Virus record (IMG/VR): IMGVR_UViG_3300031521_000021
Coordinates: 32,001-96,000 of that record
From: a virus
Length of the DNA stretch: 64,000 nucleotides
Strand: one strand, 5' to 3'
The notes beneath the pieces were generated by a model. It was not told the origin of the DNA. It worked only from the letters and a program-made list of their open reading frames with translations, and did no database searches. The position numbers and the translations under genes were made by a program. Below, in pieces: positions 3,963 through 49,330 of this stretch (the first letter of the stretch is position 1; each line of letters begins with the position of its first letter).

Positions 3963-4091
3963 ATGAATAACAAAAAGAAACGTAAAACAAAACCTAAAGA
4001 ACCGATATCTAACATCACAAAGATATCATTAATCATTGCTTTAATAAATCTAATAAGTGCATTGATAGGCATGATTAGTAAATTTATTTAA
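3963..4091 (+). CDS. Small basic-then-hydrophobic membrane peptide (42 aa), type I toxin-like
   Basis: GGAGGT RBS before ATG 3963; MNNKKKRKTK followed by one TM helix; promoter TTGCAA...TATAAT upstream. Confidence 0.55.
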   Translation: MNNKKKRKTKPKEPISNITKISLIIALINLISALIGMISKFI

Positions 4092-37774: not shown

Positions 37775-38701
37775 TTGATTAATATGAAAGCTAGAACAAA
37801 TAAGTTACATGAATCAGCAGAAAACTTTTTAGATTATTTACATATGAAGAATTCAAGCGAAGGAACTGTGAAGGGTTATAGAAGCAACTTAAATATTTTC
37901 TTCGACTTTATAAAGACTTACAAAAAAGTAAGAATTATTGATAATGAAATAATTGAAAATATAAAACTAACTGACCTACATGCATTTCTTAACTATGCTG
38001 AGAAAGAGTTGGCAAATAGTCCAGCTACTCGTGCAAGAAAAGTTGCTTGTTTGCAATCTTATTACAATTATATATACAAGAAAGCGAAAATAGTAAGTGA
38101 AAATGTAGCTGAAGAATTAGATAGAATAAAAATTCCAGAAAAAGAAGTAATATATTTAAACAAGGAACAATCAAAAAAATTATTAGAATCAGTAACTAAA
38201 GCTAATCGAAACTATATTAGAGACTTATGTGTATTGACAATATTTTTAAATACAGGTTTAAGATTATCTGAATTACAAGGATTAAGAATTGATATGATAA
38301 AAGGGGATCAGCTTATTATTATAGGTAAAGGTATGAAAAAACGAGAAGTATTTTTAAATGATGAATGTTTAAATTCAATCAACAACTACTTAGAGAATAG
38401 AGATGAATATGATGTATCGGATGAAGATAAGAAATATTTATTTTTATCAATAAAAAAACGCAGAATGGCAAAAAATAGTATTGAAACCATGGTTAAAAAA
38501 TATTTAAAAATGTCAGGATTTGGAGAAGAATATCATACACATACTTTGAGAGCGAGTTTTTGTACTAATGTATATAATAGTGGAAAAGTAGGAATAAAAA
38601 CTGTGCGTGACCTTATGGGACATTCTAGTATATCTACTACACAAAAATATTTAGGGGTTACAGACGAAGATAAGAGAAATGCAGTCAAGAATATATATTA
38701 A
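37775..38701 (+). CDS. XerC/XerD-type tyrosine recombinase with catalytic residues present (start probably ATG 37784)
   Basis: SAM-like N-domain (S..T...Y...L..F; SPATRARK); TGLRLSEL, GKG.K.R, HTLR, LMGHSS, TQKY. Confidence 0.95.
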   Translation: MINMKARTNKLHESAENFLDYLHMKNSSEGTVKGYRSNLNIFFDFIKTYKKVRIIDNEIIENIKLTDLHAFLNYAEKELANSPATRARKVACLQSYYNYIYKKAKIVSENVAEELDRIKIPEKEVIYLNKEQSKKLLESVTKANRNYIRDLCVLTIFLNTGLRLSELQGLRIDMIKGDQLIIIGKGMKKREVFLNDECLNSINNYLENRDEYDVSDEDKKYLFLSIKKRRMAKNSIETMVKKYLKMSGFGEEYHTHTLRASFCTNVYNSGKVGIKTVRDLMGHSSISTTQKYLGVTDEDKRNAVKNIY

Positions 38702-45704: not shown

Positions 45705-45814
45705 GTTGGAGCAAGTATCCATCCTTTTTTTGTTTGATTATATGGCTTAAACACTAGATTTGTGAGGGTATTAAAATAAATTAATATAAATATGAATTAT
45801 TTTTAGAAAAAGTG

Positions 45815-46021
45815 TTGACAATATATTCCGTAGGGTGTAATATAGAGTCATGGAAGAGATAAAAACAAATTAATAGAGAAACAAAAAAACATTTGAAAAA
45901 GTATTGACAGACTTGGAAACAAGTAGTAAACTAATATTCATAGGGAACAAGTTAATAAATTAAAACAATAAAAGAAAAAATATAAAAAAGTATTGACAGT
46001 GTTACCAAGTAGTGGTAAGAT
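45815..46021 (+). promoter_or_regulatory. Three tandem sigma-A promoters with exact 89-bp period
   Basis: TTGACA at 45815, 45904, 45993, each 17 bp from TAATAT, TAAACT, TAAGAT, each preceded by AAAAAGT(G/A). Confidence 0.85.
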
Positions 46022-46104
46022 AAGATTATAGAAATGAAATAGATTAATAGAAATAAAAAAGTAATTTTAAAGGGAAATTAAAAAAATTTATTAATTAAAG
46101 GAAG

Positions 46105-46881
46105 GTGGTCAGTATGTTAGATTTTAAAGAGCAACTGATGGCAATTAAGACAGAAATGGATAAAAAAGAATTAAAGAGTGATAAAATAATAGAAACAAAA
46201 GAAATTGTACATAGTAACATTAATAATCATAAAACTATGTATAATACTGAAAATAAAAAGATAATAGTTCGTCGTGCTGAGGTATACTGGAGTGACCTTC
46301 AAGGGTCTCAAGGATCAGAACAGGGAGGAGAAAGACCAGTTTTAATAATTCAAAATGATGTTGGTAATACATACAGTCCAACTACAATAGTAGCTGTTAT
46401 CACATCTCAATTAACTAAAGCAAAACTTCCTGTACATGTAGAATTGCAGAAAGAAATAAATAATATGCCACAAGATTCAGTAATATTATTTGAGCAAATA
46501 AGAACATTAGATAAGAGAAGATTAAAAGATAAAATATGTGAATTAGATGAATTAATGATGAAAAAAATTGACAAGGCAATAGGAACTTCTTTGGGTATAA
46601 AAGTAGCTGAACCAGAACAGGAAAAAACTTCAAAAACAGAAAAGGCTCCATTAGAAAAATTACATGAAAAATTGAGAAATAAAATTGAAGAAATGTTAGA
46701 TGATATATATACTTATGAAAAGGCTTTATGTAAAACAAGAAACGAAAGTTTAAGAAATAATTTAATTGAACAAAGAGAAGCGTTTTTATGGTTACTACAA
46801 AATTTTTGTGAAAATAATAAATTAAACTATAGAGATTATTATAAAAAATATAATCCAGAAAGAGAGACAGTTGCTATGTAA
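46105..46881 (+). CDS. mazF: MazF/PemK (NdoA-like) endoribonuclease with about 50-aa N-terminal and 90-aa C-terminal extensions
   Basis: VRRAEVYWSDL...GSEQGGERPVLIIQNDVGN.YSPT.IVA.ITSQ..KAKLP.HVE...DSVIL.EQIRTLDKRRL closely matches B. subtilis NdoA. Confidence 0.93.
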   Translation: MVSMLDFKEQLMAIKTEMDKKELKSDKIIETKEIVHSNINNHKTMYNTENKKIIVRRAEVYWSDLQGSQGSEQGGERPVLIIQNDVGNTYSPTTIVAVITSQLTKAKLPVHVELQKEINNMPQDSVILFEQIRTLDKRRLKDKICELDELMMKKIDKAIGTSLGIKVAEPEQEKTSKTEKAPLEKLHEKLRNKIEEMLDDIYTYEKALCKTRNESLRNNLIEQREAFLWLLQNFCENNKLNYRDYYKKYNPERETVAM

Positions 46882-46909
46882 AATAAAAATATGAAGTGGG
46901 TGCAATAAG

Positions 46910-47572
46910 ATGAAAACAAAGAGAACTATAAAAAAGAGGGTTTTGATAGATATATTTGATATATGGGATGATAAAATTAATGGCGGTGTTTATATTGCAA
47001 GAGATAAATTAAAAAAAATGTTTATGACAGAATACCCATTTTTAAAATACGAAGAAATTGAAGAAAAAAGGTTAATACTTCATAATTTAACTGTGGCAGA
47101 AATAGATATTGGAAAAGAAAAAGGATTGAAAATTTATGAAATGGAATCTGTAAAATTATATACATCAATATTAAAAAACGAAATGGATAAAGTCGAAGGA
47201 TATAAAGAAGGGGATACAGGTTTTTTATATGTGGGAGTTTTAAATAATTATACTGAAAGCCACAAAAAAGAATTAACAAAAAAAGAATTAATAGAAAATT
47301 ATACAACATGTTATAAAATATATGAAAAATATGAAAAGGAGAATGAATATGGACATTTATATAAATTAATAGCGAAATTTAATATCAATCTAGTAAAAGG
47401 AAATTTTTCCATACTTCTCAATATACTTGAGGAGTTGATACATAATAATGATGATACTGAATATAAAAGAAGTTTTAATGAATTAGAAAGGGAATTAAAA
47501 GAAACAAATAGCTTATTATATCAAAGAGTATCAACATTATTAAAACTAAATAAAAAATTGGAAATAATATAA
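46910..47572 (+). CDS. Helical TPR-like protein, candidate intracellular peptide receptor or antitoxin; no HTH seen
   Basis: Amphipathic helices with Asn-centred motifs (ILHNL, VLNNY, AKFNI); lies between mazF and a secreted peptide gene. Confidence 0.5.
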   Translation: MKTKRTIKKRVLIDIFDIWDDKINGGVYIARDKLKKMFMTEYPFLKYEEIEEKRLILHNLTVAEIDIGKEKGLKIYEMESVKLYTSILKNEMDKVEGYKEGDTGFLYVGVLNNYTESHKKELTKKELIENYTTCYKIYEKYEKENEYGHLYKLIAKFNINLVKGNFSILLNILEELIHNNDDTEYKRSFNELERELKETNSLLYQRVSTLLKLNKKLEII

Positions 47573-47579
47573 GACAAAT

Positions 47580-47648
47580 CTTTCATATATGTATCAATTA
47601 ATATAGATGTAATTAAAAAAATCTATATTAACAATACATATATGAAAG
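47580..47648 (+). promoter_or_regulatory. Long interrupted hairpin reaching the RBS of the peptide gene
   Basis: CTTTCATATATGTAT...TTAATATAGAT pairs with ATCTATATTAA...ATACATATATGAAAG. Confidence 0.75.
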
Positions 47649-47659
47649 AGGTGAAACGA

Positions 47660-47764
47660 ATGAAAAAAAGAACTATAAAGGCAACCTTAATAGTAATAGC
47701 TATATATGCAACTATGATTTTATCAACAATTGTTGCAAGCGCTGGTAGTATAGGGAGAGGATAA
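47660..47764 (+). CDS. 34-aa secreted signalling pre-peptide MKKRTIKATLIVIAIYATMILSTIVASAGSIGRG (AimP/Phr-like; not in ORF track)
   Basis: GAGGTG RBS; basic N-region, hydrophobic H-region, A-S-A cleavage site, leaving C-terminal hexapeptide GSIGRG. Confidence 0.8.
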   Translation: MKKRTIKATLIVIAIYATMILSTIVASAGSIGRG

Positions 47765-47782
47765 TTAAGTACATAAGACAAA

Positions 47783-47814
47783 AAAGAGTAGACAGATAGT
47801 TTTGTCTACTCTTT
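47783..47814 (+). terminator. Terminator after the peptide gene (possibly bidirectional)
   Basis: AAAGAGTAGACA / TGTCTACTCTTT stem with flanking A and T runs. Confidence 0.8.
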
Positions 47815-47924
47815 AAAATTACAAATAAATTAATAAAAATATTTGTAATAATTCTATTGACTTCTTAAAGTGGTAGGATTATACTATCAATATAAATAAA
47901 TTAACAGAAATGAGGTGAAATGAA

Positions 47925-48044
47925 ATGATAAAAGTTATAATATTTACATTTGGATTAATGGTATTAAACAACTTGGTAAAAATACATATGAAATCGGATA
48001 TAATTGAACAAGCTATATTAGATGAACTTAAGATAATAAAGTAG
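47925..48044 (+). CDS. 39-aa small protein MIKVIIFTFGLMVLNNLVKIHMKSDIIEQAILDELKIIK (not in ORF track)
   Basis: Promoter TTGACT-17-TATACT, GAGGTG RBS. Confidence 0.55.
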   Translation: MIKVIIFTFGLMVLNNLVKIHMKSDIIEQAILDELKIIK

Positions 48045-48079: not shown

Positions 48080-49330
48080 ATGGATAATACAGACTATAAA
48101 AAACTCTATAATGAAGTAAAAAAAGAATTACAATTAAATAAGAGAACAATAGAAAAATCAAATCTTAAATTAAATAAGTATTATAATGATAATAAGGAAA
48201 GAGATGATTTTATTCAAAATTTAAAAGCAGAGATTACAAATCTAAATAAAATCATAGAGGACAAAGATAATTACAATAAAATAAAAGATGTGAAAATTAT
48301 TGAATTATCAAGTATGAATCAAGGGATAGATACTATAATTGTAAGTAATAATAAGTTAAAAAAAGAAATAAATAAACAACAACATGTAATTGATAAATTA
48401 CAATCTGAAAGCAAGAAAATTAATATATTAAGCAATGATGATAAAGATAAATTAAAAAAGATCATTAATCAAAATAAAAGTCTATCAAATGAAATATTAG
48501 GATTAAAAAATAAGAATGAGTCATTGAAAAACTCATTAGAGGAACTGTTAAAAGAAAAAGATAGCTTTATAAATGTTCATACGAAAAAATTTAATAATTC
48601 TATATCTAGAATAATACATATGCTAAATTACAATCTGTCAATCAATAATGTTGAAGGTTATAGAAATATTAACTCTTTAGCAAGAAGGGTTGAAATATTT
48701 TTAGAAAGAAAAGATAAATATAAGCAAACCACAGATAATAATTTTACTGAAATAAGTAAAGAAGTATTGTTTGGATATGTATTTGAGGATTATAACAAAG
48801 CAACTTTTATAGATGTTGAAGGAAATAAATATTTAATTAGAGAATTAATTGGAAAAGTAAATATGGATGTTCCTGCGAAAGCAATATTAACAAGCGAAAA
48901 TAGTGTAATTATAAAAGAATTTTACAATGGAGATGTTATTGATATAAGTACAGATATTAAAAAATATAAAAAAGATGATAAGAATAAAACCGAAGAAGAA
49001 ATACTTGATAAAATAAAAGAAGATATAGTTCCAATTAATGATTGTAGTGTATTAATTGTTACTGGAAGAAATGAAAAACATTATAAAAAGTATTTAGAAT
49101 TATATGGTTTAAATATAACAACTTTTAATCCATTTGAGGAAAATATAAATTTGTTACCTGAAAAGATTAAATCACAAGATGTTATAATTATAATGAAGAA
49201 TGCAGTATCTCATGATGTTATGAAAAAGATAGATATATCTGATAATAAAATTCAAGTAATAGGAAGAGATAATATAAAATATATAGTTGCTAGAATAAGA
49301 TACTATATAATAAACAATAAATTAATATAA
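48080..49330 (+). CDS. Coiled-coil protein with C-terminal DUF2325-like domain
   Basis: Long K/E/N heptad region; VLIVTG...Y...LE.YG...LP.KIKS.DVII.....VSH..M. Confidence 0.7.
   Translation: MDNTDYKKLYNEVKKELQLNKRTIEKSNLKLNKYYNDNKERDDFIQNLKAEITNLNKIIEDKDNYNKIKDVKIIELSSMNQGIDTIIVSNNKLKKEINKQQHVIDKLQSESKKINILSNDDKDKLKKIINQNKSLSNEILGLKNKNESLKNSLEELLKEKDSFINVHTKKFNNSISRIIHMLNYNLSINNVEGYRNINSLARRVEIFLERKDKYKQTTDNNFTEISKEVLFGYVFEDYNKATFIDVEGNKYLIRELIGKVNMDVPAKAILTSENSVIIKEFYNGDVIDISTDIKKYKKDDKNKTEEEILDKIKEDIVPINDCSVLIVTGRNEKHYKKYLELYGLNITTFNPFEENINLLPEKIKSQDVIIIMKNAVSHDVMKKIDISDNKIQVIGRDNIKYIVARIRYYIINNKLI

Follow-up and report, generated by a model that had tools for sequence, protein, structure and literature searches.

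Can a phage couple a secreted peptide signal to a toxin-type nuclease of its own? The question is raised by a stretch of 64,000 nucleotides (nt), hereafter the window, that corresponds to positions 32001-96000 of the 116,623-bp linear IMG/VR virus record IMGVR_UViG_3300031521_000021. In it, a gene for an extended MazF endoribonuclease (MazF-long) is followed by a gene for a helical protein of 220 amino acids (aa) with a predicted tetratricopeptide repeat (TPR) fold, and then by a 34-aa open reading frame (ORF) that resembles a secreted pre-peptide. We consider the chances evenly balanced that the trio makes up a conserved peptide-communication cassette of phages, the output of which is the phage's own MazF. 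Such a cassette would be a form of phage peptide quorum sensing in which both receptor format and output are new. The anatomy of the unit, its conservation, the TPR fold, the homology of the upstream genes to sroE and sroF, and the statistics of MazF recognition motifs were all computed.

The record has a G+C content of 25% and is ~47% complete as estimated by CheckV; within the window, nearly all genes are on the + strand. The stretch is present in 22 sequencing runs, none of which is recorded as RNA, and several peat metagenome runs contain the locus together with diverged relatives (contigs of four DNA runs were compared). Seven distinct loci with a homologue of the 220-aa protein were used throughout: the window, L001 (193,897 bp), L002 (a 28,556-bp metagenome contig), L004 (229,129 bp, estimated 100% complete), L005 (196,135 bp), L006 (115,375 bp) and L009, which is the same stretch as L010, identical in two records. 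The window and L001 are near-identical and can be counted as one locus. Most of the ten TPR-family homologues or clusters that were checked derive from Logan or ENA, not IMG/VR.

Anatomy and conservation of the cassette

The same gene order is kept in all seven loci: a SroF-like gene (369-415 aa), two or three tandem promoter-like sites, the MazF-long gene, the TPR gene, an ORF of 29-38 aa and a stable hairpin downstream of it. The genes are closely spaced, with gaps of 12-28 nt between the MazF-long and TPR genes and of 37-94 nt between the TPR gene and the pre-peptide, and no promoter or terminator is visible at the MazF-long/TPR junction in any of the seven. In three further cases, a homologue of the MazF C-terminal extension and a homologue of the TPR protein were found on contigs of the same size (4582, 28005 and 39562). 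A preliminary description of this DNA, made from its letters, had placed a MazF, a 220-aa helical protein, a 34-aa ORF and a terminator here in one transcription unit. All four elements were confirmed in place (Table 1), as was a single unit bounded by tandem promoter-like sites upstream and a terminator-like hairpin downstream; the three-gene synteny for which it had proposed a search proved to be conserved in 7/7 distinct related loci.

Table 1. Positions of the cassette and of neighbouring features (window coordinates unless another locus is named)
Feature	Position	Strand	Basis
MazF-long, 255 aa	46114-46881	+	Pfam, PDB match, orthologue alignment
Stand-alone TPR-fold protein, 220 aa, candidate peptide receptor	46910-47572	+	AlphaFold2 model and structure search
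Long two-tier RNA hairpin between TPR stop and peptide ribosome-binding site	47575-47653	+	Folding, RNAalifold
Pre-peptide ORF, 34 aa (MKKRTIKATLIVIAIYATMILSTIVASAGSIGRG)	47660-47764	+	ORF, ribosome-binding site, leader features; equivalent ORF in 7/7 loci
UACAUA between peptide stop codon and terminator stem	47770-47775	+	Motif
Terminator-like hairpin closing the unit, 12-bp stem	47783-47814	+	Sequence fold
Tandem sigma-70-type promoter-like sites, TTGACA-17-TAnnnT, 89 bp apart	45815-45843, 45904-45932, 45993-46021	+	Sequence motif
SroE/YopQ-like gene, 488 aa	43085-44551	+	PHROG phrog_5732, E 6.6e-26; tblastn to phi3T
SroF/MrpR(YopR)-like integrase-fold repressor candidate, 387 aa	44541-45704	+	Profile, Pfam
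Tyrosine recombinase	37775-38701		Phage_integrase, E 2.8e-35
Conserved 39-aa ORF after the cassette	47925-48044; L001 4938-5057; L002 4953-5072; L005 5552-5671		Own ribosome-binding site

The first gene of the unit encodes a MazF core with an appendage at each end. Its frame is open from a GTG at 46105, and translation probably begins at the ATG at 46114, which follows GGAAGGTGG and gives the 255-aa form found in databases. The protein comprises an N-extension of ~50 aa, the PemK/MazF core, a linker, and a C-extension of ~90 aa with a helical hairpin and a short tail. The Pfam family PemK_toxin covers residues 56-162 (E 2.8e-31, 108.4 bits against a curated cut-off of 23.1 bits), core residues ~52-168 match the solved MazF structures of B. 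anthracis, B. subtilis and S. aureus (E 3.5e-38 to 3.3e-37), and core identity to MazF in phage records reaches ~61% (tblastn). In the alignment to 4hke, GGERPVL pairs with GGVRPVL and VITSQ with AITAQ; R74, T97 and S98 in these stretches, candidates for the catalytic Arg and Thr/Ser positions, are invariant in six orthologues. Across the same six orthologues, conservation of the C-extension equals or exceeds that of the core. The protein ends in VAM (window) or IAM there, and in NAM, IAL or IAI in loci further removed. As a whole, MazF-long is modelled by AlphaFold2 with low confidence (mean predicted local distance difference test (pLDDT) score of 57.9), with a pLDDT of ~80 for the hairpin at residues 185-234. 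Pfam searches with the N- and C-extensions alone returned nothing meaningful, the C-extension retrieved only generic helical hairpins from a protein atlas, and in each of the 90 cultured-phage records that matched MazF, the match spans about half of MazF-long at most (tblastn).

No + strand ORF of at least 25 aa lies in the upstream interval 45705-46104, and the MazE model PF04014 has no match in the record (~47% complete) or in five related records, one of which is estimated to be 100% complete. MazE of Bacillota may be of the ribbon-helix-helix type, which PF04014 does not cover. The Pfam match, the PDB matches and the ORF map therefore bear out the claim of the preliminary description that the locus encodes an NdoA-like MazF with terminal extensions and no adjacent mazE. 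In L004, the MazF-long frame breaks at eight consecutive A (3985-4000), and the N-extension and the core are read in successive frames; the cause could be a misassembly or a switch prone to slippage.

The second gene encodes a protein that belongs to no Pfam or PHROG family. Its AlphaFold2 model (mean pLDDT of 90.1, predicted template modelling score of 0.85) consists of ten helices. Exhaustive structural alignment of this model returned TPR proteins throughout (top Z 12.7; PlcR-PapR at rank 11, Z 11.2), and in a second structural comparison the top match was phi3T Rap with its pheromone (8rsv_A; Z 13.1, root mean square deviation 5.7, 185 residues onto 168-365). Further structural matches were NprR (Z 12.4), RapI (11.7), PlcR (11.2) and the Rap of pLS20 (10.2). 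Foldseek gave no match at E up to 0.001, its weak rows all being TPR proteins; a PDB profile search with the TPR family found nothing related at E up to 10; and the protein atlas led to Bacillota hypothetical proteins (0.93), a ComR_TPR cluster (0.90) and TPR models by structure. Of Rap, NprR and PlcR, only the C-terminal TPR half aligns with the model, and the N-terminal effector domain of those proteins, either a helix-turn-helix (HTH) or a Rap-type bundle, is absent. As modelled, the fold of the 220-aa protein is a TPR fold equivalent to the peptide-binding half of RRNPP receptors, an equivalence that does not imply common descent. A TPR-like fold without an HTH, as had been proposed, is supported by the AlphaFold2 model and by structural matches that include phi3T Rap, NprR, RapI and PlcR.

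The TPR protein has 16 close homologues. A profile search of 1.84 billion representatives collected a family of 52 clusters, all of 69-229 aa; because no family cluster exceeds 229 aa, no fused HTH or effector domain occurs in that search. Fusions of MazF with the TPR protein are likewise missing from the TPR-family relatives, and from the 120 of 2748 long MazF proteins that were inspected. The TPR proteins fall into clades that we name after the tails of the associated pre-peptides, and those of the GWG clade are ~25-32% identical to the protein of the window. No match to the TPR protein was found in cultured-phage records (tblastn).

The third gene is small, and its features are those of a pre-peptide. 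In the window, GAGGTG stands 6 nt before the ATG, which lies 87 nt after the TPR stop; the leader has four K/R in its first nine residues and an uncharged stretch of 25 residues; and A-S-A occupies the -3/-1 region ahead of the last six residues, so that a heuristic reading predicts the release of the hexapeptide GSIGRG. A ribosome-binding site (RBS; GAGGTG, GGAGGTG or TAGGTG) is found 5-9 nt before the ATG in 7/7 loci, and all seven pre-peptides have a K/R-rich start and a hydrophobic core. Moreover, small residues at -3/-1 are placed exactly six residues from the stop in every locus, with Ala at -1 in five and Ser in the two loci with GWG tails (the -3/-1 pairs are A.A in three loci, V.A, C.A, I.S and V.S). 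The small ORF with a leader and an ASA site six residues before its stop, as first described, is hence present on this heuristic reading. The tails differ by receptor clade: those of one clade follow xxxx(R/K)G (GSIGRG, GTSTRG, TGSPRG, TTGSKG and ISSGRG), and those of the other follow SGxGWG (SGGGWG and SGNGWG). Variable tails that group by receptor clade are the pattern expected, from sequence, of a signalling pro-peptide paired with a receptor; seven receptor/tail pairs are too few for residue-level co-variation.

Ahead of the pre-peptide, the transcript is predicted to fold into a long hairpin. In the window, its folding energy is -29.9 kcal/mol (z -8.4 versus shuffles), its 3' arm enters the Shine-Dalgarno region, and a UACAUA lies at 47635. 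A like hairpin is found in five of the seven loci, those of the RG/KG clade (-24.7 to -32.8 kcal/mol, z -4.6 to -8.4), and their RNAalifold consensus has 25 pairs, of which 13 show compensatory changes. In the two GWG-clade loci the gap is short and the hairpin is missing. The element probably restrains translation of the peptide gene or sets its timing, or else marks where the transcript is processed.

Lysogeny neighbourhood and putative MazF recognition sites

The preliminary description had noted that arbitrium of SPbeta-group phages acts through host MazEF, via AimX/SroB next to the sro operon, and the unit does stand in a comparable neighbourhood, directly downstream of sroE and sroF homologues. 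The SroE-like gene matches phi3T_96, annotated as similar to SPbeta yopQ (E 6e-6, tblastn). For the SroF-like protein, a profile of seven orthologues matches PDB 9rd5_H/9rgl (E 1.3e-5, positions 35-314 versus 16-306), entries identified as phi3T SroF bound to DNA and to its antirepressor (10.1101/2025.11.27.690993). The Pfam family MrpR_N_CB is matched by 7/7 orthologues (best E 6e-6), with the window's own score of 20.4 bits below the 27-bit cut-off. In phi3T, the order is aimR-aimP-aimX, three small genes, and then the yopP-like, yopQ-like and yopR-like genes. The tyrosine recombinase of the window lies 4.4 kb upstream of the SroE-like gene, a position that resembles the place of the yopP-like integrase before yopQ/yopR in phi3T. 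In a further related record, L015, the SroF-like gene alone is present and the rest of the cassette is not there.

In phi3T, MazF is reported to degrade most phage mRNAs and to spare the operon with sroF (10.1101/2025.11.27.690993), and MazF activity is reported to promote lysogeny. MazF of Bacillota is reported to cut UACAU, more strictly UACAUA, and a second report describes UACAUA specificity as conserved for the enzymes of B. subtilis, Listeria and S. aureus (10.64898/2026.08.06.743204). The phage enzyme was assumed to have the same specificity, and occurrences of the motif were counted.

In the window, the SroE-like gene has one UACAU and no UACAUA, and the SroF-like gene has no UACAU in 1164 nt. 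Over the sroE/F-like genes of the seven loci (12,540 nt), which are homologous and so not fully independent, although synonymous sites are saturated at 25-57% protein identity, UACAUA occurs 0 times versus 5.9 +/- 2.3 expected from codon shuffling and 6.9 +/- 2.2 from synonymous-codon resampling (0/2000 resamplings as low). UACAU occurs 6 times versus 18.6 +/- 3.5 under the latter null. The reverse-complement controls in the same genes are not depleted (UACAUA motif, 8 versus 5.9; UACAU motif, 31 versus 26.5). Among 46 ORFs tested, the sroF-like gene has the largest deficit, and the other 44 ORFs of at least 200 aa in the phage are enriched (47 versus 27.8, synonymous-codon resampling). For the phage ORFs of at least 200 aa as a whole, UACAU was counted 94 times versus 69.8 expected. 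SPbeta and phi3T are likewise reported to be enriched in the MazF motif.

The motif also recurs within the unit. It lies within 40 nt after the peptide stop in five of the seven loci (chance P ~4e-6); with the window and L001 counted as one, the tally is 4/6, or ~7e-5 from a per-locus chance of 0.046. A UACAUA at a conserved His codon of the TPR gene is present in 7/7 loci, which is weak evidence (chance ~0.02, hand calculation). Against codon shuffling, UACAU(A) is significantly over-represented in the mazF and TPR genes, which was considered as a sign of RNA-level selection and rejected: the excess is gone under the synonymous-codon null and stems from amino-acid sequence and codon usage. 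Unlike the sroE/F-like genes, these two genes are not protected from the motif. Of the suggestion that MazF activity biases the choice between lysis and lysogeny, the part that stands is that the site statistics fit a repressor-sparing logic like that of phi3T; the switch itself would follow by analogy with that phage.

Proposed peptide control of MazF and competing explanations

From these elements we infer secretion, cleavage, re-import and sensing of a peptide, a TPR-MazF contact, the cleavage specificity of MazF and the direction of a switch. In this mechanism, Sec would export the 34-aa pre-peptide, and signal peptidase would cut after ASA to give the hexapeptide, GSIGRG here. The peptide would build up with the number of infected or lysogenic cells, would then be re-imported and would bind in the concave groove of the TPR-only protein. 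With neither a DNA-binding domain nor another effector domain of its own, this protein would act on a protein partner, of which the likeliest is MazF-long, encoded 28 nt upstream; the contact would probably be made through the conserved C-terminal helical hairpin and tail. Peptide binding would shift the amount of free MazF activity, and active MazF would cut UACAUA-bearing phage transcripts, its own operon included. The UACAUA-free sroE/sroF-like repressor genes would be spared, tilting the decision to lysogeny, as with host MazF in phi3T. By that analogy, high peptide would lead to active MazF and on to lysogeny.

A more explicit form of this mechanism can be described as a post-translational arbitrium. 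In it, the TPR protein would be a minimal RRNPP-type sensor, the effector would be supplied in trans by the hairpin and tail of MazF, and the peptide would compete for or reshape the contact and so gate the RNase directly. Freed MazF would destroy UACAUA-rich messages, including its own operon, from which the terminator hairpin would be removed, and sroE/sroF would survive to favour lysogeny. We regard this form as tentative, possible and somewhat on the improbable side. Prediction of a 1:1 complex of MazF-long and the TPR protein gave scores of 0.16 and 0.01 against a mark of 0.32, which weighs neither way on binding.

The arrangement is best understood by comparison with arbitrium of SPbeta/phi3T-type Bacillus phages. 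Both are phage-encoded, both place a receptor gene before a small pre-peptide gene, and in both the last six residues are the signal, known for arbitrium and predicted here; phi3T AimP ends in SAIRGA, and the tail here follows xxxxRG. Like arbitrium, the cassette adjoins sroE/sroF homologues and would be tied to a UACAU(A)-specific MazF, which for arbitrium is reported to favour lysogeny and to spare the sroF operon. By contrast with AimR, the receptor of the cassette has ~210 aa and no HTH. MazF is phage-borne and extended, unlike in arbitrium, and no pro-region separates the peptide tail from the signal-peptidase-type site that it adjoins. Moreover, the cassette lies downstream of sroF, whereas the phi3T arbitrium genes lie upstream of the operon. 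The best tblastn match of AimR in the record has E 0.32, and no AimR homologue was found in five related records in a search that had no positive control. For phi3T AimX, the best E in the record is 1.2 (tblastn), and no aimX-like gene was found; the terminator comes directly after the peptide gene, where arbitrium has aimX.

Two further systems offer parts of the same design. The chromosomal MazEF of Bacillota (NdoA/EndoA-EndoAI) shares the MazF core, but it has mazE upstream, which is missing here, and its canonical MazF lacks the N-extension of ~50 aa and the C-extension of ~90 aa. In fused or self-inhibited toxins such as CapRel(SJ46), a C-terminal helical appendage on the toxin domain could fold back as a cis-inhibitor that a partner pulls off. 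MazF-long has a conserved C-terminal helical appendage of this sort on a different toxin fold, and its hairpin as a cis-inhibitor is a reasonable, if speculative, alternative to direct inhibition by the TPR protein.

Several observations weigh against a peptide-controlled MazF. No Pfam TPR model matches the 220-aa protein at E up to 1, its structural Z scores of 11-13 are tied with those of unrelated TPRs of the kinesin-light-chain type and lie within the range of the helical-repeat fold class, and hhalign of the TPR family with phi3T AimR gives a probability of 0.3%. The leader could be an uncleaved membrane anchor. The cut motif of the phage MazF is assumed to be UACAU(A) from the ~60% identity of its core, and in the mazF and TPR genes of the seven loci UACAUA occurs 14 times versus 11.7 under the synonymous-codon null. 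Finally, another related record, L016, has retained SroE/SroF-like genes together with a MazF-long of 265 aa, without a TPR or peptide gene; a TPR homologue was not found in it by tblastn with 53 family members (best E 0.18). Long MazF can therefore persist without the other two genes, which speaks against an obligatory antitoxin role of the TPR protein and makes a simple toxin-antitoxin relation doubtful. Other regulators may lie off-record, since the record is only ~47% complete. The MazF-only variant of L016 (5674-6900), which serves as a comparison case, is followed by only ~430 bp without a long ORF.

An alternative that keeps the signal and changes the target is a self-contained pair of TPR protein and peptide, like Rap-Phr, that acts on something other than MazF, such as a SroE/SroF complex, an antirepressor or a host regulator, with MazF-long merely a co-transcribed effector or defence gene. 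The cassette resembles the Rap-Phr pairs of B. subtilis, phi3T and pLS20 in having a TPR receptor without DNA binding, which here would likewise act on a protein partner, and a peptide gene just downstream. The top match of the second structural comparison is phi3T Rap itself, and L016 demonstrates both that the parts are separable and that the MazF C-extension is retained without a TPR partner. Rap proteins are larger, however, at ~360-380 aa; only their C-terminal TPR half aligns, and there is no sequence-level match. Rap proteins hold their targets by an N-terminal helical bundle, which the TPR protein lacks, and its gene follows the MazF-long stop by 12-28 nt in 7/7 loci with no promoter or terminator visible between them. 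On this evidence, we regard a Rap-Phr-like pair with a separate target as rather unlikely.

The unit could instead be a toxin-antitoxin or defence module that involves no signalling, composed of a MazF-long toxin, possibly inhibited by its own hairpin, a TPR antitoxin or sensor, and a small ORF for a membrane-anchored mini-protein with a role such as superinfection exclusion or another accessory function. MazF is a classical type II toxin, prophage toxin-antitoxin modules often serve defence, and the uncharged stretch of the leader, up to 25 residues long, could remain in the membrane. That explanation sits poorly with the small residues at -3/-1 exactly six residues from the stop and with variable tails on conserved leaders in 7/7 loci, which form the pattern of a signalling pro-peptide; a six-residue extracellular tail is also too short for most other functions. 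Furthermore, the cassette lies in a lysis-lysogeny region in which the repressor genes avoid the MazF site. We judge a module of this kind unlikely, and clearly so. That the small ORF is not a gene at all and resembles one by chance is highly improbable: short ORFs are common at 25% G+C and no RNA run is listed among those that hold the locus, but an equivalent with a strong, correctly spaced RBS, conserved leader features and an intact frame follows the TPR gene in 7/7 loci, whose neighbouring genes have diverged by 25-60% at the protein level, and the RBS has a structured RNA element ahead of it.

Novelty and neighbouring features

No description of a MazF-TPR-peptide cassette was found in the literature, although the supplementary receptor lists of RRNPP surveys could contain the TPR family. 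In one such survey, the criteria are a pro-peptide gene of 10-100 aa adjoining a receptor of 250-500 aa that matches TPR hidden Markov models (PMC10075063). A small pro-peptide gene is adjacent in all seven loci here, and the receptor, at 220 aa (69-229 aa in the family), falls short of the length range. The cassette thus lies outside the default filter of RRNPP_detector as given there (receptor of 250-500 aa, TPR model match), which would explain why it has been missed so far. DNA-level searches of phage and plasmid collections matched the MazF core and nothing else of the cassette, one further alignment-based scan of viral sequences gave no match, and a prophage copy was not found in two scans of genome contigs.

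Communication between viruses has so far had arbitrium as its main paradigm, the connection of which to host MazF is a recent finding. To judge from the cassette, large phages of a separate lineage may have arrived at the same logic by way of a half-size receptor, a peptide freed by signal peptidase alone and a MazF that the phage carries. If peptide control of MazF is true, no quorum-sensing receptor before the TPR protein would have been shown to control a nuclease of the toxin-antitoxin type, and SPbeta-like phages would have a second communication system, built independently of the first. The outputs of peptide quorum sensing would then extend from transcription factors and phosphatases to toxins. 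The cassette would also offer a simple three-gene system for studying the choice of MazF between lysis and lysogeny, as well as compact, orthogonal RNase switches under peptide control. The avoidance of MazF sites in repressor genes is a directly testable prediction.

Upstream of mazF, two or three sites of the promoter-like type are present in 7/7 loci, with conserved motifs in their spacers. By spacer, the promoters are of three types, one with TTCCGTAGGG, one with the inverted repeat TTACCA-N5-TGGTAA and one with TTGGAAA. Spacer types are shared by phages whose proteins are only ~30% identical, and because they are kept at that level of identity, they suggest that several regulators, each with its own operator site, act at the tandem promoters.

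Downstream of the terminator-like hairpin, a 39-aa ORF is present in 4/7 loci. It has no Pfam family; its N-terminal half is hydrophobic and its C-terminus reads ELKIIK or ALKIIK. The next large gene (48080-49330, 416 aa) encodes a protein whose N-terminal part is an extended coiled coil and whose C-terminal domain is DUF2325 (E 2.1e-9, Pfam); the gene has its own promoter-like site at 47857.

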